Shown here in pieces: positions 2,108 to 20,000 of a DNA stretch of 20,000 nt (its first letter is position 1; each line of letters starts with the position of its first letter). This stretch comes from an uncultured virus (IMG/VR IMGVR_UViG_3300020048_000034) (Duplodnaviria > Heunggongvirae > Uroviricota > Caudoviricetes), in IMG/VR virus record IMGVR_UViG_3300020048_000034, one strand, 5' to 3'. Under the pieces are notes generated by a model. That model saw nothing but the letters and a program-made list of their open reading frames with translations, had not been told where the DNA came from and ran no database searches. The position numbers and the translations under genes are program-made.

Positions 2108-4093
2108 TTAATCTGGTATCAACTGAACTGTAGTAGTAAATCCATTACTAGAGCTTATTGTACCATTAATGGGTGAAGTTTTATAATAACTTCCCAAAAC
2201 TGATTTTCGTACTCTTCCAGTAATAGGTTGATCAGAAATTAATGATCTAGAATCAGAAATTAATCCATTACTATCTGTTTCACCCTCAATTATAACTGTA
2301 GTTGCTTTTATTGTACCAGTAGCTGGAGTTGATACTGCATCACTAATTGTGAATGAATAAGAATTTGCACTTATATAAGTAATAGTTTTAATTCCATTAT
2401 ATTCTGGTTGTGTTGCCCCAGATATTTGTACTTTAGCTCCAGTTGAATAACCGTGAGAGGTATGAGTTACTGTTGCAGTAGTACTAGTTCTACTGATTGT
2501 TACAGTTACATTATAAGGAAGTGATCCACCTGTATAAGCTAATACTAAAACTCTAGCACTTTGAATATTTGAAAGGGTTACTGCATCTATAACTTTAATC
2601 GTAGTAGTTACTGAAGCAGTTGACAAAATAGTTGTAGCATTAGTACCATTTCTAATAGATAATGTTCCAGTAATATTAGAAACATTTAATATTACAGTTC
2701 CTCCAGAATTATTATACAATACTTCATTTCCAGTTGATCCACTAGAACTAGCATATCCGGTTATTATATCTATAACTTTAATTATAGTAGTTACTGAAGC
2801 AGTTAATAGAATAGTTGTAGCATTAGTACCATTTCTAACTGAGAGAACCCCAGTTACATTAGAAACATTTAATGTAACAGTTCCTCCCGAATTATTATAT
2901 AATACTTCATTTCCAGTTGATCCATTTACTGTTGCATAATTTGTAAAAGAATTACCTGTAAAATTATATGTATTACCAGCACATGAGGAGGATAATTCAA
3001 TAGCATGTTTTGTACCACTAGAAATAAAGGTACAATTAGATATATTAGAGGGATTATTACTTAATAATGTTTTAACTGTGTCTGTAGTTGAGTCAAAAAT
3101 ACATTTAGAAAATATACTACTATTTTGAGTAATCAATTTACAACTTCTAAAGGTAGTATTTGTAATTGTACTATTTGAAGCAAATCCAAAGGTTCCCATA
3201 TTAATAAAGAAACAACTTAATATGTTCTGAGTAGCATTATCAGTTGTTACCCAATTACCAGGAGAAGCTGTACCTAATGCAGAAATAGTTATTGCTGTCA
3301 AATCAATTCTACTAGTACTTTGTCTAACTTCAAATCCATTAAAATTAGATGAAACTCTTCTGGTATTATCTATAATTATATTTTTATTACTATCTCTAAA
3401 ATCTACTGCTGATCCATATCCAAATATAATTAAACCTTTAGATAAGTAACTTCCATTTACTGCTTGAAGTAAGCCCCACCTATTAATTTGTAAATCATTA
3501 ACTGCTGAAAATCCATCAAAAGTAGCATATCCATTTGCTAAATCTCCACCAGAAAGTCTAGACTCACATCTTCCATATCTAACACAATCAACACCATAAG
3601 GATTACCTTTAGTTGGTACTCCTGTAGTAGCATTATAAGCCCAACCTAAATATCTTCTTGTAGAAGTAGGAGAACCTACTGTATAATCAGGTGTTTGTGA
3701 TGGGTCACAAGCAATATTTATCCAACCTCCATAGGTGTATGTATCCACACCACCTATCTTCCATCCATAAAAAGCATTTAAAGCACTTCCTACCACAAAT
3801 CTAATTCCACCATTAGTTTCAGTGTAAAGACAATTAGGAGCATCCCATTTCAACCATAGAAGTATTGCCCCATCAGTAGGAATGGTTAAACTTGTAGCAT
3901 CATATAATAATCCACCAACTCCAGATTTAACTGTAGCTGAGTTACAAGCAGAACCTTGAATATAATAATCAGTTTCACCTCCAGTTACTGAATTTATTGA
4001 AGTCCATCCAGTAGCAGTTGGTTCTGCCCAACCAGTAGCAGTTTGACAATCATGTATTAATATTAAATCAGTTGTGTATGATGGGGCAGCCAT
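2108..4093 (-). CDS. Putative tail-fibre/appendage protein (661 aa): N-terminal beta-sandwich, central beta-helix, 61-aa internal duplication, C-terminal small beta-barrel
   Basis: Thr/Ser/Gly/Asn-rich with beta-helix-type motifs (ITNTTF, FSKCIF, ISNCTF, FTGNSF). The C-terminal ATVTHTSHGYSTGAKVQISGATQPEYNGIKTIT resembles the E1-FCCH-like barrel seen in phage tail proteins. AGAGG RBS. Confidence 0.7.
   Translation of the reverse strand: MAAPSYTTDLILIHDCQTATGWAEPTATGWTSINSVTGGETDYYIQGSACNSATVKSGVGGLLYDATSLTIPTDGAILLWLKWDAPNCLYTETNGGIRFVVGSALNAFYGWKIGGVDTYTYGGWINIACDPSQTPDYTVGSPTSTRRYLGWAYNATTGVPTKGNPYGVDCVRYGRCESRLSGGDLANGYATFDGFSAVNDLQINRWGLLQAVNGSYLSKGLIIFGYGSAVDFRDSNKNIIIDNTRRVSSNFNGFEVRQSTSRIDLTAITISALGTASPGNWVTTDNATQNILSCFFINMGTFGFASNSTITNTTFRSCKLITQNSSIFSKCIFDSTTDTVKTLLSNNPSNISNCTFISSGTKHAIELSSSCAGNTYNFTGNSFTNYATVNGSTGNEVLYNNSGGTVTLNVSNVTGVLSVRNGTNATTILLTASVTTIIKVIDIITGYASSSGSTGNEVLYNNSGGTVILNVSNITGTLSIRNGTNATTILSTASVTTTIKVIDAVTLSNIQSARVLVLAYTGGSLPYNVTVTISRTSTTATVTHTSHGYSTGAKVQISGATQPEYNGIKTITYISANSYSFTISDAVSTPATGTIKATTVIIEGETDSNGLISDSRSLISDQPITGRVRKSVLGSYYKTSPINGTISSSNGFTTTVQLIPD
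2585..2924. repeat. In-frame direct repeat, 157-bp copies at a 183-bp period (2585-2741 and 2768-2924)
   Basis: Both copies encode GSTGNEVLYNNSGGTV.LNVSN.TG.LS.RNGTNATTIL.TASVTT.IKVID, with scattered substitutions. Confidence 0.95.
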
Positions 4094-4538
4094 TATTCTT
4101 ACCTCTAAGCAAATCCCGGTAGTATAGAATTGAATTTAGTACATTTTCTTTTGTTTGACCTCTAGGTATAAAAAATTGTTCTAGTTTATAGTTATTTCTA
4201 ATTACCACTGCATAATTAGTTTGCACCATTTCATTTATTAACTTTAAAATTAATCTATCTTTCCAAGAATCGGGGTATTTTGGATCCACTAAAGCTATAA
4301 AGATTGGATTAACTGGAAGTTTTTCAAATATAATATGACATATATTAGGCTTTAATTCAATACTTAAATTATACTCTAACCATGCACATTTAAAATTTCT
4401 ACAAGATATAGGTCTATTATTGTAGATTAAACAATTTAATTTACAATATATACAATTTTTATTGATAGGTTTGTTTAATTCCGGAACTTCCAACAATGTA
4501 CAACAAAGAATACATTCAGAACAAGTATTTTTATCCAT
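4068..4538 (-). CDS. CxxCxxCC (YkgJ-like) putative Zn/Fe-chelating protein (156 aa)
   Basis: N-terminal CSECILCC followed by C..C...CLIYNNRPISCRNFKC matches the CxxCxxCC family signature (C.IY..RP..CR.F.C). It ends in TGA and overlaps the next gene by 26 bp. Confidence 0.8.
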   Translation of the reverse strand: MDKNTCSECILCCTLLEVPELNKPINKNCIYCKLNCLIYNNRPISCRNFKCAWLEYNLSIELKPNICHIIFEKLPVNPIFIALVDPKYPDSWKDRLILKLINEMVQTNYAVVIRNNYKLEQFFIPRGQTKENVLNSILYYRDLLRGKNNGCPIIHN

Positions 4539-6323: not shown

Positions 6324-6755
6324 TTAAATTAATCTTATTCCTATTATATTACCATTAATATCTCTATCTAGAACTTTAGTCTTGGTTAGAACATTAGCAT
6401 TATCATAATAGGATAAAGATAGGAGTTCTTCGTCAGTATCTCTGTTTAAAATAATTTTTGCAGTTAATGAATTATCAACATATTTTTTAATATTTGATAT
6501 ACTATCATTCTCTCTTTCAACTTCTATTAAAGAATATTCTACTTCAGGTGTACCAGGAGGCCCTGGTTCTCCCTGAATTCCTGGTTCACCTTTATCTCCT
6601 TTTGGGGGAGAAGTTTCAAAAGTATTAACAATTTCTTTCTGTGTTTCAAATATAACAACTTTATCACTAATGGTATTTACATCAATTGTTTGTGGTTTCT
6701 CTACTTCTATAGAATTTATTTGCTCATCTTCTAGTGTTTGAATGGTAATTGGCAT
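6324..6755 (-). CDS. Small protein with a short collagen-like Gly-X-Y run (143 aa)
   Basis: KGDKGEPGIQGEPGPPGTP motif and GAGG RBS. It follows an adaptor-like gene, an arrangement common in phage tail-fibre cassettes. Confidence 0.75.
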   Translation of the reverse strand: MPITIQTLEDEQINSIEVEKPQTIDVNTISDKVVIFETQKEIVNTFETSPPKGDKGEPGIQGEPGPPGTPEVEYSLIEVERENDSISNIKKYVDNSLTAKIILNRDTDEELLSLSYYDNANVLTKTKVLDRDINGNIIGIRLI

Positions 6756-6763
6756 AGTACCTC

Positions 6764-7162
6764 TTATCTAGTAACAGCAGCTACTATACTAGCTGAACCA
6801 TATTGTTTAAGGACTGATTCTCCACTAGGATTATACAGAAATAAATTATATGTTCCATTTATATTTTTATGATTTACACATAGTCCTAATGTATCTTCAT
6901 CTTTTATATAAATTCTATATCTATCATCAACACCTACATCCATCATATAAATACCAGAAGTAGCATCTGGTTGCCACGCAACTTGTACTGGTAATAAACT
7001 TAGTAATGGTGCAGAATCAGTTATTTTCTGTCTAACTTGCATTTTACCAGTAAACCCAGTTAATGAAACAGGTGTTCCATCTACTAACCATCTAAACCAT
7101 TTATCAAATGTACCACCCTCATAGATAGTTATGTTATATTCATAAGCTATAACTCCAGACAT
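6764..7162 (-). CDS. Tail-fibre adaptor / baseplate-upper-like beta-sandwich protein (132 aa)
   Basis: NITIYEGGTF...DGTPVSLTGFTGKMQVR...GTYNL...G pattern resembles small phage fibre-anchoring proteins (LtfC/BppU-N-like). AAGGAG RBS. Confidence 0.6.
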   Translation of the reverse strand: MSGVIAYEYNITIYEGGTFDKWFRWLVDGTPVSLTGFTGKMQVRQKITDSAPLLSLLPVQVAWQPDATSGIYMMDVGVDDRYRIYIKDEDTLGLCVNHKNINGTYNLFLYNPSGESVLKQYGSASIVAAVTR

Positions 7163-7179
7163 AATATTTCTCCTTGAGA

Positions 7180-7201
7180 ATTCCCTATATAAATAGGGAA
7201 T
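7180..7201 (-). terminator. Intergenic 9-bp hairpin, possible terminator or RNA stability element
   Basis: attccctat-ataa-atagggaat lies between the stop at 7211 and the RBS of 6764-7162. There is no clear U-tract. Confidence 0.4.
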
Positions 7202-7210
7202 CCCTAACTA

Positions 7211-10200
7211 TTAGCCACTAATATAAACTGATGAATCAGGTAAAGAACTATTTTTCATATATGAATAAAATAAAATTATCTTAGCAGGTACAGCTTTTTC
7301 TTTAACTATAAGTTCACCAACTTTTAAATTAGTTCCAACTTTAACTAGCTCTAATTTATTTTCATATAAAGTTACTGTTTGTAATGAAAAAGGATCTGGA
7401 ATTGGTGTCATTAATACTTTTATACTATTATTTCCAGAATCAACTGTTATAATATTATTTTTATAATTAATAACAAATGGGGATAAATATTTTTTTAATA
7501 ATTCAATAAATAGTAAAGGTGTAATTTGAATTTTATCTAAAGGTAAAGGAATTTCAATTATTCCATGATAACTAGAATAAAATACATATTTTCTCCCATT
7601 TATTCCAGATAATGGGTAACAATCAATTAATGACGATGATTTAATAGTGTACTTATTACTTATAGTATTCTTTAAATAGAAAACTATTTCCTCATTAGCA
7701 TAATCTAAAATAAATTTTCTTGAGGGATTTAAAAAATCATCATTTATGTCAATACCCATTATTACTTGCGTTTCTTCTAGTGGAATAGTAGTAATTAATT
7801 CATCTAATGGTTGTTTATCAATAATACTTATTATTTCTGGGAATCTCTCTACTAATTTAGGTAAAATAGTTATTAGTGGGAGTAATCCTATTAATTCTTG
7901 AGGTATATCATTTCTTCCTGGAAATTTGTCAACTAGGTTTGATAGTAACTCTATTACAGGAAGTGTTTCTATTAATTCAGGTAAAACTTCTTTTATTTCT
8001 GGAAATAATTCAACTAGTTTAGGTAAAATTTCATTTTCTGGGAGTGTTTCTATTAATTCTGGTAAAACTTCATTTATTTCTGGAAATTTTTCAACTAGTT
8101 TAGGTAAAATATCTGTTAGAGGAAGTATTTCTGGCAAAACTTCTTTTATTTCTGGAAATTTTTCAACTAATTTAGGTAAAATGTCTGTTATAGGAATTGT
8201 ATTTACCAATTCCGTTAAAACTTCTTTTATCTCTGGAAATTTTTCAGACAACTCTGGTAACTTTGTTACCACTTCTGGAAATGTATTTATCAATTCTGGT
8301 AAAATATCTACTATTTCTGGAAATAACTCTGATAGCTCTGGTAGATTCTCTTTTATTTCAGGAATTCTAATATTATTATTAAATTCTTTATCTAAAAATA
8401 TTTCTGGGTCTTCTATCGGTGTAACAGTAGTTATTAACTCATTAGGTGATATAATGTCATACTTTATAGTAAGTTCCGGTATTTCTGGATTATAATCTAC
8501 AGAAGTAATAGGAGTATAAATAGAAGTTAATGGGTCAAGTATAAAAGGGTTAGGACTGTAAAAAGTTGGAGGATCTAGTGGTTCTGGTTTCTCTGGTTCA
8601 TCTATATCTCCATCTATAATAGAACAAGCTAAATCTAATAATTCAATGCTTCCTTTAGTAGATGATATAGGAGGAGAACAAGGACTACATTTCGGTTCAG
8701 AAACACTTCCTATTTCTTCACAATCTGGATTTATATCAATAATTTCAGATTTTATTTGTTCCGCAATTGTTGTTAATGTTTCTTCTACACTATACCAAGG
8801 TAAATCATAATTCAATACATCCTGATCTGAAGGTATGCCAGTTTCAATAAAATTAGATAAGTTAGGAAATTCTGGAAATTCTTGCTCCAATAAGTAAATA
8901 AAATCTTCATAAGTATTTATAGGGGGTTCAATTGTAGTAATAGTATTAACAGTAACTTCTTTTGGTGGGGTTACTGTCCCACCTTTAGGGAAAGTAATAG
9001 GTGTTGCTTTTTTCTCAATACCTATATCCCCTCCATCAGTGATAGGTGGTATTTTAACAATAACTTCTCCCCCGTCAACAATAGTTACAGGTATAAGTGG
9101 CTCTAAAGGTATTTCTTTACCTCCAGGAATTGTTATAGTACCAGTTGTTCCAGGTATTTTTATAGTACTTATTGGTACTATAACAATTGGTTCTAAGGGA
9201 ATAATAATACCCTTTCTAGGAACTATTATTGTCCCACCATTTGGTACAGCAGGTGTTCCACCTTTACCTATTGGTGTAACAACTTTTGGTGGAATTTTAA
9301 CAACAATTACCTCACCGCTAGGAGGTAAATCTCCACCTTTTCTAATCGGGCATAGTGCTGCAAACATTCTTTCAATTACGTCTAGATAATAATCTACAAC
9401 GGTTGATTGTTTTAATGGTGCATATCCACATATATTCCAGGAATATGAATCCTTTAATGGAATTCCCTCACTATAGAATACTTCCCTTGCCTCGCTATAT
9501 ACTTCTTTATATCTATTAATCTTTGCTTCATGGTAGGTTGGAAAAATACTTCTAACAGAGGGATGAACATCTTTAGTTACAAATGCATCTAGTGAATAAG
9601 TATAAGTATAATAAGGTCCTTTTGGTGATTTAACTCTGTCACCTAATTCACCTAATGGGTTCCACCCAAAAATAGTATTAGCATAACAATTTTCTGGAAT
9701 TCCACCTATTCTAATCCTAAAATCAAAATCTATACTAGTTTTTATTTGTAAAAATCCATTATAATTAACTATTTGATAAGTAGATTGATGCTCCCCAGAA
9801 GAATTTCTAAAAATAATATAATTATACTTATTCAAATAAGTAGTACTTTGAGTCCAACTCATTTTAGATTTATTTTGTCTAAGCCAATTTCCATCCCTTT
9901 GCATAGCTTTAATTATTTCATCAACTGTACCACTACCGAAAGGTAATTCTATGTAACTCCAATCATCTAACTGCATTATCTCAGGATTACTAAAATCAAT
10001 CCAATAACCGATAGTTAAGGTATCTCCAGAATGTCCAAAAGGATTTATAGTACAAGAAAGATAACTTGTACCAATTCCTTCCCACACACCTGTCAGTGAG
10101 ACTGCTTGACCATTACTCCAAGTAGCATAAGGTGTAGAGAGTATTTTCGGCGTAAATTTAGGTTTAAGCGGATTAGAAAGATATCCTACATTAATTTGTA

Positions 10201-10240
10201 CTTTTTGATTAGAAGGATTATATAAAATTATATAAAACAT
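7211..10240 (-). CDS. C-terminal fragment of the giant protein (1009 aa): Pro/Gly/Ile-rich segment and acidic helical repeats
   Basis: From the ORF track. It has no good RBS, and its start abuts the 10-bp duplication. Confidence 0.7.
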   Translation of the reverse strand: MFYIILYNPSNQKVQINVGYLSNPLKPKFTPKILSTPYATWSNGQAVSLTGVWEGIGTSYLSCTINPFGHSGDTLTIGYWIDFSNPEIMQLDDWSYIELPFGSGTVDEIIKAMQRDGNWLRQNKSKMSWTQSTTYLNKYNYIIFRNSSGEHQSTYQIVNYNGFLQIKTSIDFDFRIRIGGIPENCYANTIFGWNPLGELGDRVKSPKGPYYTYTYSLDAFVTKDVHPSVRSIFPTYHEAKINRYKEVYSEAREVFYSEGIPLKDSYSWNICGYAPLKQSTVVDYYLDVIERMFAALCPIRKGGDLPPSGEVIVVKIPPKVVTPIGKGGTPAVPNGGTIIVPRKGIIIPLEPIVIVPISTIKIPGTTGTITIPGGKEIPLEPLIPVTIVDGGEVIVKIPPITDGGDIGIEKKATPITFPKGGTVTPPKEVTVNTITTIEPPINTYEDFIYLLEQEFPEFPNLSNFIETGIPSDQDVLNYDLPWYSVEETLTTIAEQIKSEIIDINPDCEEIGSVSEPKCSPCSPPISSTKGSIELLDLACSIIDGDIDEPEKPEPLDPPTFYSPNPFILDPLTSIYTPITSVDYNPEIPELTIKYDIISPNELITTVTPIEDPEIFLDKEFNNNIRIPEIKENLPELSELFPEIVDILPELINTFPEVVTKLPELSEKFPEIKEVLTELVNTIPITDILPKLVEKFPEIKEVLPEILPLTDILPKLVEKFPEINEVLPELIETLPENEILPKLVELFPEIKEVLPELIETLPVIELLSNLVDKFPGRNDIPQELIGLLPLITILPKLVERFPEIISIIDKQPLDELITTIPLEETQVIMGIDINDDFLNPSRKFILDYANEEIVFYLKNTISNKYTIKSSSLIDCYPLSGINGRKYVFYSSYHGIIEIPLPLDKIQITPLLFIELLKKYLSPFVINYKNNIITVDSGNNSIKVLMTPIPDPFSLQTVTLYENKLELVKVGTNLKVGELIVKEKAVPAKIILFYSYMKNSSLPDSSVYISG
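7830..8350 (-). repeat. Coding tandem repeats LP[KE]L.E.FPEI.EVLPEL (mostly ~27-aa / 81-bp period)
   Basis: About 7-8 FPEI/FPEV/FPG units in the protein. The DNA repeats tttatttctggaaa...tcaactagtttaggtaaaat. Confidence 0.9.
10218..10237. repeat. Perfect 10-bp tandem duplication (ttatataaaa x2) at the junction of two ORFs
   Basis: 10218-10227 is identical to 10228-10237. Collapsing it gives ...VDYVLYNPSNQKVQ... Confidence 0.85.
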
Positions 10241-14955: not shown

Positions 14956-15204
14956 TTATTTTCCATTCACAAAAACAGTAGTTGATCCTGATCCAGCTGT
15001 TCCGCCACAACTAATTCCATCGCCTTCCCTATGAACAGCCTTACCCTCTACAAATACATTAGAAGAACCTTCAGACGCAGCTCCAGGACAAGCATAAGTA
15101 TCACCTACTCTAGCAATACCTTTCCCATTAACAAAAACTGTCTTAGAAGCTCCATCTATCGGTAAAGCATGTAATGAACATACATCCCCTTCTCTCATAA
15201 CCAT
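14956..15204 (-). CDS. PAAR-repeat spike-tip protein (T4 gp5.4-like, 82 aa)
   Basis: Three R.GD repeats (MREGD, IARVGD, VHREGD), GS..VFV[NE]GK motifs, and Cys/His metal ligands. Confidence 0.92.
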   Translation of the reverse strand: MVMREGDVCSLHALPIDGASKTVFVNGKGIARVGDTYACPGAASEGSSNVFVEGKAVHREGDGISCGGTAGSGSTTVFVNGK

Positions 15205-15521: not shown

Positions 15522-18155
15522 TTATCCTTTATTAAAGTGAATTTCAGTGCCATCTATTTTATACTGAGCATCACTTTTTATTTTAACATCTTCTTTAGAA
15601 TGTTCTTCAATACCTTTGTTAGTTAAATTAACTAGATTTCCAGACATAATACAAGTCATGTCACCAGAAAGTGCTTTAGAATCAACTGATCCAGATAATG
15701 ATCCACTACAACCAGAAGCTTCAACTCTGCTGTTATCATCAACTGTTAAATTACCAGTTGCTTGACACATTTTAACACTAGAGTTAGAAATAGACACATC
15801 ACCAACATTTCCGCCAGCAATTGTTAAGGAAGAGCTATCCACAGAAACACTAGATGTTGTACAACCAGAGAATTCTCCAACTGATTGAGCAATAGAAATT
15901 GCCTCAGAAGTTGTTCCAAATATTTTTCCAGTTGATTGGTTAGATATAGTTAATTCTTTAATAGAGGAAGCTTTTAATTCATAATGTGTTTTATCAATAG
16001 ACGCAGTTTGAATATCACTATTATGGGTTGATAAACTAGAATTAGTTAGTGTAGCAGTATTAACTGTACATCCTTCATATTCACCGCTAGAATCATCTGA
16101 TGTTACAGTCTCTAATGTTACTCTAGAAAGTTTTCCTTGTGACTTACTATCTATAGTTAATTCTTTTATTGATCCTTTTCTAAAATCATAAGTACTTTTA
16201 GAAAGTGTTGCTGTTTCAATTGTTGTATTATGTGTTAATAAACTTGAATTATTTAAAGTCACTTTTTGGAAAGTACAATTCTCAAATTCTCCATGAGAAT
16301 CATCCATAGTTACCTCTTCACAAGTAACTTGGAATAATCTACCCATAGATTTATTAGTTATTGTAATTTTCTTTACAGTTGCGTTTTGTAAGTCATAAAT
16401 TACATTATCAAAATCCCCATTTACAACTTCTGTAGAAGCACTTGCTTGAACAGTAGAGGAACTAGCACTAACTTTCTTATCTCCATCAAAAGTAGCTTCA
16501 TCTATCTTCATAGTAGTACCAGATAAATCCATCTCTTTAGTTCCTTTCATAGATGATTTATTATCTACTGAACTACAATTAGTTAATTTCATAGAAGTTA
16601 CTTTTGGGTCTAAAGTTAGTTCCTTAGTTATCATTTTACAATTTTCAGCAGTATAAGCATTAGCACTTTTTGACTTATGACTTGATCCAGTATCAGTTAC
16701 TTTACACTCTTTAAAGTTAGATACATCTTGTTCTACTTCTATAGTATTTTTATTTTCTTCATAAGTACATTTTTCAGCTAATCTACCCATACCAGTATCA
16801 TTTTTTATCTCAGATGAGATAAGCCTAACAATATCTTCTTTAGTATTTAATGTATGAGGAACTGGACCCTTAAATATAGAAGAAATTAAAGCTAACTCAC
16901 ATTTTTTAGTTTCTACATTATCCTGTCCACCTTTTACTTCATGTTCAGTGTTGGTAGCATTTATATGCGATTCCTCAGCATGATAGTTCCATCCATTAGT
17001 AGAAAACAATGTTGAATTAGTAGAAATAATTGTGCATTTAGATATATCTGTGTAATTTGTTTCATTATTATGAAACTTTCCATCTAGCATTATAAATGTA
17101 GATTCTTCCCCACCTTCTACTGAATGGTCTGCTCTAAGTCCATCATCACTCCAGCCTTTTAAATCATTTGAACTAGTTGATGCTTCTGTATCAACATAAA
17201 TATCCCACGATTTATCATTGTACCAATCCCACGCTGATTCACTTTTAGATGCTACAGTACTATCTGAATTAGTTTCTGTTGCTTTATCTACTCTATCTCC
17301 CTCTTCTGCATCAGGAGACTCTTCTATTCTAGAAGTATAGTTTTTAGAAGCATAAAGTTTAGTACTAGAGGAAGTATCCTCCCCACCAGTATAACTAGTT
17401 CCTTCATTGATTGCTTTATCATTAATGTAACATTGAGAGGTACCTACCCCTGTAAAATTCTGTCACCTAGCAATCATATCTGTTCCAAAGATAGATATAA
17501 TGCAATCAGTAACACCTTTAAAATTAGCTGTATGATCATTCCCAGAAATCCAACGATTACTTTTAACAATAATCTTACATTTTTTTATTTTGTAAAGATT
17601 ATTTATTCCTGTACTACAAATCCATTTTTTAGTCATTTTAAAATGCATTTCACAACATTCTATTTCTTTAAACTCATCTAAATAAGTTTCACCCTCAAAT
17701 GTCATAAAATAATTCTTACAATTATAAACATAAGGAAGTCTACAATGAATAAATGTCATTTGTGCCCTATCTTTAGGCTCACAGCACTCTTCATCTAACT
17801 TTGTAAGTTTATCTATGTTGCAATCTATGAATGTTGCCCATGCAGTTTGTTCTGCTTTTAATTCAATTATTCTACACCTAAATATTCTGTAAAAGTAACC
17901 AGCTTTTAAAGTTAATGTTCCAGTTCTATCCCAGATTGAAACATGTGCCCACTTATGCTCTAGAAATTTACCAGGATATGGTCTATCAGCTACCCATTTA
18001 TTATCAAATTCTTTATTTATTGCTTCATTTAATTTTTCATTGTCATCCTTATCATCTCTAGGGATACCTTCTTCCGTTCTATCTTCTATGTTCCATTCTA
18101 ACTCAGTTTCCTTATCTCCATAGGGATAAGGGTTCTTGTCCATGTATTCAGCCAT
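15522..18155 (-). CDS. Cys/Ser/Thr-rich beta-solenoid protein (877 codons including one in-frame TGA at 17463-17465) with a spike-like C-terminus
   Basis: The frame continues past TGA through 124 sense codons (QNFTGVGTSQCYIND...EESTFI) straight into the 522-aa ORF. It has solenoid repeats (GEFENCTFQKVTLNNSSL / GEYEGCTVNTATLTNSSL / GEFSGCTTSSVSVDSSSL) and ends in IKSDAQYKIDGTEIHFN, like gp5/VgrG termini. GAAGGA RBS at 18155. Confidence 0.8.
17427..17466 (-). promoter_or_regulatory. Candidate bacterial SECIS-like recoding hairpin
   Basis: UGA, an 11-nt spacer, then AGGGGU-AGGU-ACCUCU (17451-17436). A lower stem GUGACA/UGUUAC is possible. Confidence 0.45.
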
Positions 18156-18157
18156 AA

Positions 18158-18898
18158 TTAATTTCCTTCAGGTACAGGTACAGTTAAAGGTGGTGTACAA
18201 ATTGAACCAAGTAAGGACATATCTGGAGATTTAATTGTCATTCCAGTATCGGATTTAATTATTATTCCTTTAGTATTTCTAATAATTATTTTTGGACAAA
18301 ATATTTCTATTGTGTCTTTTTTAAAAGAAATAGTCATATCTCCATATTTTAATTCAAATTCTTGAGTTTTTCTATCTGCTTTAAAGTATGTACCAAAATA
18401 ATCTTTAAATTGATTAACTGATTCCTTAGAATCTTGCATTGAGAATGAACCATCACTCCATCTAACTTCAATAGTATTTACATCCTTATCTTTGTTAGTG
18501 ATGTATTTATTTTCTTTAGAATCAATAAAACCATATCTTTCTGGATACTCAGAATGAAAATCTTGTAATCTATTCAATCTATCTGTTTTGTGCCAAACAT
18601 AATACATTTTATAGATTGAACACTCTGGAGAAATTACAATTACATTACTATCTTTTTCAGGTACATTAAACTGTGATGTTAGTGGTCCTTCCCCTAAACC
18701 AACTGGGTAAAGTGGGAATATCCAAGGAAGTTTTTCCTCATCATCCCAGGGTAACAAATCTGGGACATTACATTTAATTCTACCTAGAAGGGAAGGATCA
18801 TGATTGTGAACTACCTTACATTGTAACAACCTAAAACCATGACCAAAAGGTTTGTACGGTTGAAACGAAGAAAGTGGATTAACATGACTAGCGTTCAA
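18158..18898 (-). CDS. Baseplate central spike, gp5/gpV-like OB-fold protein (246 aa)
   Basis: CKVVHNHDPSLLGRIKCNVP...LPWIFP...FNVPEKDSNVIV matches the Gp5/VgrG OB-fold motif (V....DP...GR.....P...W....P.....V.V), followed by beta repeats. TTG start with AGGAGA RBS. No lysozyme domain. Confidence 0.88.
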   Translation of the reverse strand: MNASHVNPLSSFQPYKPFGHGFRLLQCKVVHNHDPSLLGRIKCNVPDLLPWDDEEKLPWIFPLYPVGLGEGPLTSQFNVPEKDSNVIVISPECSIYKMYYVWHKTDRLNRLQDFHSEYPERYGFIDSKENKYITNKDKDVNTIEVRWSDGSFSMQDSKESVNQFKDYFGTYFKADRKTQEFELKYGDMTISFKKDTIEIFCPKIIIRNTKGIIIKSDTGMTIKSPDMSLLGSICTPPLTVPVPEGN

Positions 18899-20000
18899 GT
18901 TTTATCTCCTACTAAACATTAGTGTTAAATAACTATTATTCATAGTTAGTGTATTTTATAAAGATGCTTAAATATGGGCTTTTTTATTAAAAATCGTTAT
19001 AAAATGGGGTAAAAAAAGGGGCTTTTTTAACAACACGTTTTTCCTTATAGAAACAATTTATTATAAAAAATAAGCCCATTTTTATTAATTATGAATCAGA
19101 GGTAAATATCTGTATTTTAATACAAAAAATGATGATTAGAAACCAGAGTAAAATTAGTAAATAAAATATTAGTTCTTTATCAATGTGTAGTTAACTTAAT
19201 ATAGATCATAGTAGAGACTATTATTCATATTTTAAAATATTTAAAAACACTACTCTCTAATTAAAGTATTTAATAGTCAAATATACATAGTTTACTCCAC
19301 TTGAAGCCATAAATAGGGTGTGGTAAGAAAAAACCGCAAAAAAATAGAAAAAACTTTTGTATTATAATAAGCCATTCTCATTTTTTTGCGGTAAAATTCT
19401 GGGTTTAAAACTAGTGTTTTTTACAAAACATCTGTAATTAGGAGGTAAAGTCTGTGATTTTTACCTATATTCTCTAAAGAATCTAAAATATCTTTTTTAG
19501 GATGTAAATAGTAACCTTTAAGAACTCTAATCTTTTCTCTACAATCCATATATGATTCTAGTTCAAAAAAGAGTTTTAAGAACTGTTTTGCTTCATAAAC
19601 TCTTTAATTAGTGATTTTAATGTAGATCATAATAGATACTATTGTTAATATTTTTAAAACACTTCTTGAGGAGCTATAATAAGCGTATTTTACGCATTTC
19701 TACAAATCATAGCAATATTATGTAATAATTTCAAATAGTTGTGAAAAGCGAAAACCGTGAGCGTAAAGTTTAGAGTTTTCTCTCTTTCTAGAGTGATTCT
19801 AGACTAGAATCTAGAATTAGGGTATGTGTGAAAAGCGGCAAAAAAAATACAGTATATAACACACGCTTTTCGCTTTTCACACATTCTTTAGTATTTTCAA
19901 TACTTTATAACCCTATTTTTACTTTCTTTAGTAATTTCAATACTTTATACTTACTATAATTACATAGAACTGTATACACTAATCCCTAGGATTTATATAT
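18899..20000. promoter_or_regulatory. AT-rich non-coding control region with several direct and inverted repeats
   Basis: No ORF in the supplied track. Inverted repeats at 19333-19345/19380-19392 and 19740-19759/19862-19881. Direct repeats at 19196-19251/19617-19663 and 19884-19909/19924-19949. Confidence 0.6.

Follow-up and report, generated by a model that had tools for sequence, protein, structure and literature searches.

A retained in-frame UGA with a downstream hairpin in a putative baseplate-module gene of an uncultured tailed phage, probably read through and perhaps as selenocysteine

We found that a gene of an uncultured virus of the class Caudoviricetes (IMG/VR record IMGVR_UViG_3300020048_000034) is interrupted by a single in-frame UGA, which is probably read through, perhaps as selenocysteine. 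The window that we analyzed is the whole stretch of 20,000 nucleotides available to us. Our leading interpretation, which we hold tentatively, is that the UGA is a retained recoding site where ordinary readthrough yields some full-length protein beside a 230-aa product. The gene and the features discussed below are located as follows.

15522..18155, minus strand: whole gene, 878 codons (877 plus TAA), encoding a two-domain beta-solenoid protein of a putative baseplate/spike module
17466..18155, minus strand: codons 1-230, the protein made when translation ends at the UGA (230 aa in the ORF list, 17463..18155 including the stop)
17463..17465, minus strand: in-frame TGA, codon 231, in the context AGG UGA C, aligned to a Cys (TGT) of the relative L001
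17427..17466, minus strand: extended structure with a lower helix GUGACA/UGUUAC around the hairpin, the UGA included (RNAfold minimum-energy structure)
17436..17451, minus strand: hairpin AGGGGU / AGGU / ACCUCU, beginning 11 nt past the UGA, upper stem -5.4 kcal/mol
17091..17462, minus strand: 124 intervening stop-free codons, running from the final strand of the N-domain through the linker into the opening strands of the C-domain
15522..17090, minus strand: the '522-aa ORF', codons 356-877 plus TAA, which gene callers begin at Met356
18158..18898, minus strand: upstream neighbour, a gp5/VgrG-like baseplate hub with an OB domain (Pfam Phage_base_V, E 4.5e-4, below the curated cut-off)
14956..15204, minus strand: downstream neighbour, a PAAR spike-tip protein (Pfam PAAR_motif, E 1.4e-15; phrog_281, E 2.7e-17)

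Translation of the minus strand from 18155 to 15522 gives one frame of 878 positions, in which the only stop before the terminal TAA is the TGA at codon 231 (17465..17463; GCT AGG TGA CAG). This agrees with an earlier note on the same DNA, according to which this TGA is the only break in 878 codons, the 230-aa and 522-aa ORFs share a frame with 372 bp open between them, and the protein is rich in Cys; we count 25 Cys codons among its 877. The 372 nt that separate the two ORFs (17462..17091) contain no in-frame stop, ATG, GTG or TTG. Since stop triplets make up about 8% of the triplet positions on the minus strand (1660 of ~20000), an open run of 124 codons would be expected by chance with a probability of the order of 1e-5. 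In every data set examined, gene callers divide this gene into two 'hypothetical proteins'.

The only relative available with its DNA (L001, ~50% identical) has a single ORF of 855 codons, colinear with the gene at 15522..18155 and with no gap across the UGA site, where it carries TGT (Cys) opposite the TGA. Within codons 232-355, which lie outside both called ORFs, 58 of 124 residues are identical to those of L001. Four further, more distant full-length homologs (P0004, P0005, P0006 and P0008) are each one protein across this site. Because L001 has a single ORF with TGT at the site and the four other homologs are uninterrupted there, the 230-aa and 522-aa ORFs are, by homology, one gene and not two. 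Relatives were otherwise scarce: with the read-through protein as query (X in place of the stop), tblastn found no match among 50,697 phage records, and neither the scans of IMG/VR with peptides from the N-terminal ORF and with alignments A3 and A5 nor a search of genome contigs with alignment A3 revealed any relatives. A short-fragment protein search across the stop junction returned a single protein, P0003.

P0003 belongs to a second lineage carrying the stop. It is 230 aa long, 95% identical at the protein level, and has the same last residues (...FGTDMIAR); a 522-aa protein (P0001) is 96% identical to the product of codons 356-877. A 16,416-nt contig from a run of a different study (X2) extends across the gene and differs there by 196 substitutions and a single insertion of 6 nt; this lineage diverges from the window by ~7% at the nucleotide level. 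All nine amino-acid changes of P0001 in codons 663-868 match the differences listed for X2. Judging from the end of the N-terminal protein in the second lineage, the stop is kept at the same residue. The earlier note had allowed for a sequencing error; this is now excluded, because an independent lineage from another study stops at the same residue. The documented stop-bearing lineages number only two, and a single event in their common ancestry could account for the stop in both. Contigs of another run (X1) show 0 differences from the window over 16911-17611, which is not independent support since X1 may be the source sample of the window. In two more runs (X11 and X6) the gene is covered in short pieces only. 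Contigs from X6, an RNA-library run, cross the UGA site; this shows neither translation nor even transcription.

Between the two stop-bearing lineages we counted 24 synonymous and 9 non-synonymous codon changes in codons 663-868 of the C-terminal part. The part of the gene downstream of the UGA is therefore, as measured over these codons, evidently under purifying selection, and decay after a fresh nonsense mutation, another alternative of the earlier note, is unlikely. The X2 contig has no frame-breaking indel across 2901 nt, and in the region of codons 232-355 the indels seen in two other lineages are 6-nt insertions only.

Four of the seven homologs in the alignment could be aligned at the UGA column. 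The two closest full-length homologs (L001 and P0004) have Cys, and the two more distant ones have Asp (P0005) and Ala (P0006). The earlier note had proposed that Cys or TGA at this position would support selenocysteine; the Cys residues of the two closest full-length homologs are compatible with this, and the Asp and Ala of the more distant ones count against it. Other cysteines of the gene also vary, with C193/S, C241/Y and C167/S in comparison with L001 and C696S in the X2 lineage. The residue at the UGA site falls in a repeated 'x-C-x-hydrophobic' structural motif of the beta-solenoid, and other such cysteines are exchanged for Ser or Tyr. From this variation the residue looks dispensable, and a substituted amino acid could therefore be tolerated. 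In addition, Cys codons account for 25 of the 127 sense codons of the gene (20%) that lie one step from TGA, so that the pairing of TGA with Cys is weak evidence.

The hairpin described in the earlier note is present in the sequence and in the minimum-energy fold predicted by RNAfold. It comprises an 11-nt spacer (17462..17452), the stem AGGGGU (17451..17446) with its partner ACCUCU (17441..17436), 6 bp in all, and the loop AGGU (17445..17442). The upper stem has a folding energy of -5.4 kcal/mol; the structure reaches -5.9 to -6.4 kcal/mol when folded from the UGA and -8.6 kcal/mol with the G that precedes the UGA counted in. Its stability is thus weak. The bSECIS model, as given in the available text of PMC13188914, has a loop of 3-9 nt with G in its first two positions, an upper stem of 4-16 bp, a UGA-to-loop distance of 16-37 nt and an energy limit of -7.5 kcal/mol. 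The geometry of the phage hairpin falls within these ranges (a 4-nt loop with G at position 2 followed by another G, a 6-bp stem and a spacing of 17 nt), whereas the energy from the UGA does not reach the limit and only the value with the preceding G does.

We compared the hairpin with several backgrounds. Among 5924 in-frame codons of the genes in the window, 741 also precede a hairpin of SECIS geometry; 236 (4.0%) precede one whose overall stability is equal or greater, and 126 (2.1%) one with an equally stable upper stem. By this test of position, with 2-4% of codons doing as well, the significance of the hairpin is only moderate. Synonymous recoding with the peptide fixed gave an equally good hairpin in 9 of 4000 cases and an equally low minimum free energy in 31 of 4000; in the calibration of this test, p<=0.01 was reached at 1.5% of 130 random positions. 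The hairpin includes the rare codons GGG (7.5% of Gly codons) and ACC (5.1% of Thr codons). It is thus moderately more than chance and looks selected. Dinucleotide shuffling of the region gave z -0.61, with 51 of 200 shuffles equally good; we rejected this test because the true fdhF SECIS of Escherichia coli itself scores z 0.04. The equivalent region of L001 shows no significant structure (z 0.37; 124 of 200 shuffles equally good). A search of Rfam with positions 17000-17800 at E<=10 gave no SECIS match and one irrelevant match to a lncRNA, and at the gathering score nothing was found over the whole window.

The protein was modelled with AF2 as two confident beta-rich domains (residues 70-248 and 335-820) joined by a disordered linker (249-334). 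Foldseek returned weak beta-helix matches only, with no PDB fold match at E<=0.001, and searches of Pfam and PHROG assigned the protein to no family. Codon 231 lies inside the N-domain of the model, and the strand 241-245 comes after it. The genes are arranged in the order OB-fold hub, solenoid gene, small ORF and PAAR. The product of the upstream gene (18158..18898) matches 35 phage records by tblastn, some of them annotated as baseplate hub or tail lysozyme (best E 2e-13), and a 509-aa neighbour has no tblastn match among the 50,697 phage records. From the gene order we infer that the solenoid protein belongs to the baseplate/central-spike module and has its place there in the virion.

The explanation that we tentatively place first is ordinary readthrough. 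The frame after the stop is homologous to the uninterrupted gene of L001 and bears the mark of purifying selection in codons 663-868, the stop has the UGA-C context, and for this peptide and codon usage such a hairpin is unusual. A survey (PMC7918605), in its available text, describes TGA as leaky and finds that in-frame stops which are conserved, with dN/dS below 1, occur widely among bacteria. The following course of events can be proposed. A Cys codon (TGT in L001), specifying one of many interchangeable structural cysteines, would have changed to TGA before at least two freshwater phage lineages diverged from their common ancestor, and would then have been kept. Most ribosomes would terminate at the TGA and release the N-terminal product of 230 residues, while a fraction would read through the intrinsically weak UGA-C signal. 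With the UGA in the A site, the hairpin, which begins 11 nt further on, would lie outside the ribosome in its folded state and would probably assist. Few copies of the resulting full-length protein per virion may be enough if it is part of the central spike complex. For the inserted residue a near-cognate tRNA (Trp or Cys) would be the first choice, with selenocysteine as its rival. What the data show is the single-gene ancestry, the shared stop, purifying selection on the downstream part and an unusual hairpin; that readthrough takes place, how often, and whether it regulates anything are inferred.

UGA-C is reportedly the weakest termination signal in E. coli. Leaky readthrough at this context giving short and long isoforms had been listed by the earlier note among its alternatives, and it fits the data at least as well as selenocysteine. 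To our knowledge, there is no bacterial case of a simple downstream hairpin that stimulates near-cognate readthrough of UGA. The known bacterial role of a hairpin at such a spacing is recruitment of SelB, which favours selenocysteine.

If selenocysteine is indeed encoded, the UGA would be decoded by SelB and tRNA-Sec of the host, with the hairpin as a bacterial SECIS, and selenocysteine would replace a structural Cys. This was the reading put forward in the earlier note. We do not consider it the most likely one and would call it possible but on the unlikely side. The E. coli K-12 fdhF sequence is UGA CACGGCCCAUC GGUUGC AGGUCU GCACC, as the earlier note had given it, with the placement of AGGU that it had described. 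Both genes have an in-frame UGA, an 11-nt spacer and a small hairpin, and the two agree in letters and positions alike at A21 G22 G23 U24, numbered from the U of UGA. Fitting the bSECIS geometry of PMC13188914, as available to us in its text, the phage element resembles the bacterial SelB/SECIS system, and like bacterial Sec sites it has Cys in homologs, here the two closest full-length ones. The keeping of the stop in the second lineage and the rarity of equally good hairpins among the recodings speak for this reading as well. Its weak hairpin statistics are no argument against a SECIS, since the true fdhF SECIS does no better in the shuffle and recoding tests (z 0.04; 228 of 3000).

On the other hand, several features distinguish the phage site from fdhF. 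The hairpin has 6 bp and a 4-nt loop and, as the earlier note had already remarked, is devoid of the bulged U of fdhF; computed with the same script, its energy is -5.4 kcal/mol against -15.8 kcal/mol. Its energy from the UGA stays short of the -7.5 kcal/mol limit unless the preceding G is counted, and it lacks a SECIS match in the Rfam search described above. The phage protein is a structural beta-solenoid and not an oxidoreductase of the fdhF type, and the residue aligned with its UGA is not conserved in distant homologs. The pipeline used for the Sargasso Sea data, as its available text (PMC1088965) describes it, required Cys in at least two homologs and in >50% of homologs; here two Cys homologs are present, but their share is 50% (2 of the 4 alignable). 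Selenocysteine is described in the available text of PMC13188914 as sitting in active sites, whereas here the residue belongs to a repeated motif of a non-redox solenoid, with no redox domain found in Pfam. The frequency of Cys codons among the one-step neighbours of TGA also weighs against this reading, as does the finding of no tRNA or Sec gene within the 20-kb window. The selenoprotein reading is thus partly supported: the geometry and the Cys in the two closest homologs speak for it, and the weakness of the hairpin, the Asp and Ala residues and the non-redox site speak against it. Our literature search turned up no previously described phage selenoprotein, and the words phage, virus and viral have 0 occurrences in the available text of the 2026 selenoproteome review (PMC13188914). 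Should selenocysteine be inserted here, the phage would encode a structural, non-redox selenoprotein, with a minimal SECIS that has an fdhF-like placement of G23 and U24. Selenocysteine would then be usable at a purely structural cysteine, and a baseplate protein would depend on the SelB, tRNA-Sec and selenium supply of its host.

A split gene appears improbable to us. Termination at the UGA would be complete, and two subunits would be made: the 230-aa piece, and a C-terminal one with a start of its own at Met356 or at a non-canonical codon. In both lineages gene callers do predict separate proteins of 230 and 522 aa and Met356 is conserved, and purifying selection on the C-terminal ORF would be accounted for as well. 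The linker is long and disordered in the AF2 model, and the domains might therefore fold apart. However, an independent start after the UGA is unlikely. The ATG at 17090 is without an SD-like motif at the usual distance: its best SD-like match begins 22 nt upstream, whereas a match scoring -5.5 kcal/mol or lower lies at 9-16 nt for 10 of the window's 15 gene starts. L001 has Leu at the position of Met356. In the model, the stop lies inside the N-domain and Met356 inside the C-domain, where a start would remove the strands 340-357. Moreover, the 124 codons would be non-coding and yet have stayed open with nothing but 6-nt indels in two other lineages, and the hairpin would be left unexplained.

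We give very little credence to a defective allele or pseudogene, in which a nonsense mutation would have knocked out the gene and the phage lineage would be decaying or dependent on a helper. TGT is one step from TGA, and according to the available text of PMC7918605 the mobilome is the category richest in in-frame stops. Against this, the stop is common to two lineages ~7% apart, synonymous changes prevail downstream, the sole indel in the X2 contig is of 6 nt, and all adjacent genes are intact; neither relaxed selection nor decay of the frame is seen after the stop.

Equally remote is a changed decoding of TGA, either as a sense codon (code 4 or 25, late-gene recoding) or by a phage suppressor tRNA(UCA). 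Stop recoding in late or lytic phage genes and suppressor tRNAs are described in the available text of bioRxiv 10.1101/2021.08.26.457843, and TGA is a rare terminator in the window (2 of 15 ORFs). But instead of many in-frame TGAs there is one in ~5,900 codons, against 74 TGG, and TGA does serve as a terminator: it ends the gene at 4068..4538 in the context TGA-T, another in-frame TGA follows six codons later, and the next gene overlaps. No tRNA was found in the 20-kb window or in L001. Finally, we rejected reinitiation after the stop on reading the sequence by eye: the AUG 8 nt past the AGGU loop is out of frame and begins an ORF of 3 codons, and the AUG that follows it is out of frame as well, in the remaining reading frame.

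For the most part, the recoding known in tailed phages is either frameshifting in tail-chaperone genes or wholesale reassignment of stop codons. A single retained UGA in a baseplate gene, with a hairpin that looks dedicated to it, would be a different recoding device. Such a UGA could fix how much of the virion protein is truncated and how much is full-length, or make virion assembly depend on the decoding state of the host.

The central spike complex of the T4 type consists of the gp5 hub and the gp5.4 PAAR tip, with VgrG-PAAR as its counterpart in T6SS. The gene order from hub to PAAR and the beta-helical protein described here resemble these complexes, from which the solenoid protein differs in being without a detectable Pfam or PHROG family or PDB fold match. 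In the RNA phage Q-beta, readthrough of a UGA extends the coat protein to the minor virion protein A1. The proposed readthrough is similar in that it would concern a phage structural gene, a leaky UGA, and an abundant short product with a rare long one present in few copies. Unlike Q-beta, the phage studied here is tailed, with a dsDNA genome and with genes for a baseplate hub and a PAAR protein nearby, its stop is inside a folded domain and not at the end of a complete protein, and a hairpin lies downstream.

Phages with stop recoding (codes 4 and 15, suppressor tRNAs), as described in the available texts of bioRxiv 10.1101/2021.08.26.457843 and PMC9523058, likewise have a stop inside a late structural gene; they carry many in-frame stops across their late genes, whereas here there is one and TGA still terminates another gene. 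There is also a likeness to the conserved in-frame stops in bacterial genes of PMC7918605 (Belinky et al. 2021): as far as its available text goes, (i) the stop is at an orthologous site in the lineages compared, with purifying selection after it, as in our gene, and (ii) the mobilome category is over-represented. No RNA structure is reported there in association with the stops, whereas the hairpin and the alignment to Cys suggest a more specific mechanism in the phage.

Two ORFs of the window, whose G+C content is 30.5% and whose long ORFs all lie on the minus strand, belong to a single reading frame:

17463..18155, minus strand, 230-aa ORF (ORF listing)
15522..17090, minus strand, 522-aa ORF in the same frame (ORF listing)

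Translation of 18155..15522 gave 878 positions with a sole internal stop, the TGA at codon 231 (17465..17463), as the earlier note had described. The 124 codons between the ORFs contain no stops and no in-frame ATG, GTG or TTG; since stop triplets occupy about 8% of minus-strand triplet positions, such an open run is non-random. The claim that the two ORFs are one gene was borne out by the related metagenome locus L001, where an uninterrupted 855-codon ORF aligns colinearly with the window frame over its full length (~50% identity, MAFFT). Judged from this alignment, the ancestral gene is single, and the best reading is that the gene is single and functional, the UGA being a retained recoding site.

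Large-database searches revealed few relatives: P0001 (522 aa, 96% identity) and P0003 (230 aa, 95%), both from Logan assemblies, and P0002 (679 aa, 41%, JGI metagenome), encoded by the L001 gene. P0002 takes as its start a Met inside the 855-codon ORF (6659-9226), so at least one public gene call lacks the N-terminal 176 residues of this family. HMMER, run exhaustively against 1.84 billion representatives, gave nine proteins at E<=0.001.

Among the 12 sequencing runs listed, X1 contains 91% of the words sampled, and the window may derive from it; three runs of another study contain 19%, as expected at ~5% divergence. We compared contigs of four runs with the window gene. Those of X1, one spanning 16911-17611, showed no differences. 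A 16,416-nt contig of X2 covers all 2901 nt of the stretch compared, differing by 196 substitutions and a single 6-nt insertion (behind 17295). The RNA library X6 gave short contigs over 17235-17423 and 17411-17720, one X6 contig having a 6-nt insertion behind 17301. The window lineage is thus 6 nt shorter than X2 and X6 at 17295-17301, in the linker-coding part, where L001 too is two residues longer after ESP; the 6 nt were apparently lost in frame, downstream of the stop. Because the X2 differences listed account for every one of the nine residue changes that P0001 shows in codons 663-868, P0001 represents the X2 lineage; P0003 was assigned to it on the Logan source and longest-contig figure (19,762 nt) common to both proteins. 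The C-terminus of P0003 is MIAR, the same residue as in the window 230-aa ORF, so that the second-lineage stop is known from the protein end. Over codons 663-868 (206 codons) the two lineages differ by 24 synonymous and nine non-synonymous codon changes, a clear sign of purifying selection downstream of the stop between two stop-bearing lineages. Together these observations exclude sequencing error and argue against a decaying pseudogene, two of the explanations (the latter as a nonsense mutation) that had been left standing before.

The UGA is followed by a putative structured element, in which the spacer, stem and loop reported earlier were all recovered:

first 11 nt after the UGA, minus strand, spacer (sequence)
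17451..17436, minus strand, hairpin AGGGGU / AGGU / ACCUCU (sequence)
taking in the UGA, minus strand, outer helix GUGACA/UGUUAC (predicted fold)

In the excerpted text of PMC13188914 (Fig. 2), the bacterial SECIS (bSECIS) consensus has a loop of 3-9 nt with a G within its first two positions, an upper stem of 4-16 bp, 16-37 nt from UGA to loop and an MFE <= -7.5 kcal/mol. The site has the loop AGGU, a 6-bp stem and a spacing of 17 nt; its energy is borderline (-5.4 kcal/mol for the upper stem, -5.9 to -6.4 from the UGA, -8.6 with the preceding G), and Rfam gave no SECIS match there. A hairpin of SECIS geometry follows 741 of the 5924 in-frame codons of window genes; 340 are followed by one of <= -7.5 kcal/mol, 236 (4.0%) by one of <= -8.6 kcal/mol and 126 (2.1%) by an upper stem as stable as that of the site. 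The stem includes the rare codons GGG (7.5% of those for Gly) and ACC (5.1% of those for Thr), and in G+C the 16 nt fall among the highest 1.8% of the gene. With the 20-residue peptide kept constant and its codons redrawn among synonyms at the frequencies that the phage uses, only 9/4000 recodings formed a hairpin of SECIS geometry with equal stability, and 31/4000 reached an MFE as low; in calibration, p<=0.01 was reached at 1.5% of 130 random positions. At the corresponding site of the Cys-bearing L001 no significant structure was found. On balance, selection on the hairpin is probable, at about the 1% level.

The adjoining genes mark a baseplate/central-spike module. The upstream gene encodes a gp5/VgrG-like OB-fold hub (weak Pfam match to Phage_base_V), for which tblastn matched 35 phage records, some annotated as baseplate hub or tail lysozyme (best E 2e-13), and a PAAR protein (E 1.4e-15) is encoded two genes downstream of the 878-codon frame. 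The gene at 15522..18155 itself matched no Pfam or PHROG family. An AlphaFold2 model of the full-length protein (8-sequence alignment, mean pLDDT 75.3) contains two confident all-beta domains, ~70-248 and 335-820, joined by a disordered linker (249-334). Foldseek gave no match to it at E<=0.001; its best weak hits were to proteins with a parallel beta-helix (PL6 alginate lyases, a staphylococcal phage tail protein, autotransporter adhesins). The protein has many short 'x-C-x-hydrophobic' motifs, e.g., FRCRII, IDCNID, KKCKII, TDCIIS and SQCYIN, and codon 231 (AR-X-QNF) falls within one of them.

It should be added that the 1.1 kb upstream of the gp5-like gene (18899-20000) has no ORF of >=60 aa on either strand. 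Its repeats are a direct one of 50 nt (82% identity; 19188 and 19609), a 29-nt sequence present twice at a distance of 40 nt (19881 and 19921) and an inverted one of 20 nt with 95% complementarity (19740 / 19862); the stretch is a candidate promoter or regulatory region preceding the late operon. Elsewhere, a 704-aa PKD-domain gene (listed GTG start 12332) overlaps the start of the gene after it (1009 aa) by 23 nt (10218-10240). In L001 (9805-15642) the homolog of the solenoid gene is followed by ORFs of 179 and 1945 aa, and in the window by a 96-aa ORF, PAAR and baseplate genes; the downstream module is therefore not syntenic.

We tentatively favour, at somewhat less than an even chance, an alternative that the earlier note had offered: readthrough of the weak UGA-C by ordinary tRNAs. 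Some ribosomes would decode the UGA with the help of the hairpin, so that both a short and a long isoform would be made. The excerpted text of PMC7918605 describes TGA as leaky and conserved in-frame stops with dN/dS below 1 as common in bacteria, above all in the mobilome category.

Decoding as selenocysteine (Sec), the note's own preference, ranks lower and appears rather unlikely. Part of its basis stood: the stop is common to two lineages, the hairpin lies in its geometry within the bSECIS consensus and is built of rare codons, G23/U24 are placed identically to those of E. coli fdhF, and the TGA pairs with Cys in near relatives. In BLASTP the stop is opposite a Cys of L001 (FGTDMIAR-X-QNFTGV vs FGTDMVGR-C-NNHTGV; codon TGT). 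The homolog alignment that had been proposed gave a divided answer: of seven homologs, L001 and P0004 (35% identical) have Cys, but P0005 has Asp, P0006 has Ala and three have a gap. The site is thus Cys in near relatives, yet by this alignment no conserved Cys; the comparison as a whole draws on two stop-bearing lineages and one Cys homolog known at the DNA level. Cysteines vary elsewhere as well (C193/S, C241/Y and C167/S vs L001; C696S in the second lineage), and the pairing is weaker evidence than it appears because, among the 127 sense codons in the gene that are one step from TGA, 25 (20%) are Cys codons. Against Sec stand also a structural, dispensable and non-redox site, the marginal hairpin energy and the lack of visible Sec machinery. 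Neither is there a phage precedent: the literature searched contained no report of a phage selenoprotein, and the words phage, virus and viral occur 0 times in the excerpted text of a 2026 review of prokaryotic selenoproteomes (PMC13188914).

A true split into two subunits, with the UGA terminating the first, is improbable. An independent start of the C-terminal part is unlikely, given the 124 codons lacking a canonical start. The best SD-like match of ATG 17090 begins 22 nt upstream; a match <= -5.5 kcal/mol at 9-16 nt precedes 10 of the window's 15 gene starts. Such sites say no more of the host than that it uses SD-led initiation. Met356, encoded by this ATG, is Leu in L001, and in the model it lies inside the C-domain and the stop inside the N-domain. 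Reinitiation was rejected: the AUGs that closely follow the hairpin are in wrong frames and lead into short ORFs only.

Altered decoding or a suppressor tRNA is very doubtful; general reassignment is excluded by one in-frame TGA vs 74 TGG in ~5,900 codons, and gene 4068..4538 is terminated by TGA (TGA-T), with a second in-frame TGA six codons on and the next gene overlapping. This gene, the only other one terminated by TGA, shares 26 nt with the start of gene 2108..4093. Neither the window nor L001 contains a tRNA. A defective allele is equally hard to credit beside the purifying selection over codons 663-868.

UGA readthrough has a classic case in the RNA phage Q-beta, where it yields a minor virion protein. 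As to Sec, the retrieved E. coli K-12 fdhF sequence (UGA, 11 nt, GGUUGC AGGUCU GCACC) confirmed the SECIS cited in the earlier note. This genuine element (L002, codon 140 region) scored z 0.04 in the dinucleotide-shuffle test and 228/3000 in synonymous recoding; the archetype does not stand out in either. Both tests are low in power: a poor score does not count against a SECIS, and the tests are unfit for dismissing candidates. Because fdhF has the same 11-nt spacer and AGGU placement, A21, G22, G23 and U24 coincide in the fdhF SECIS and the phage site.
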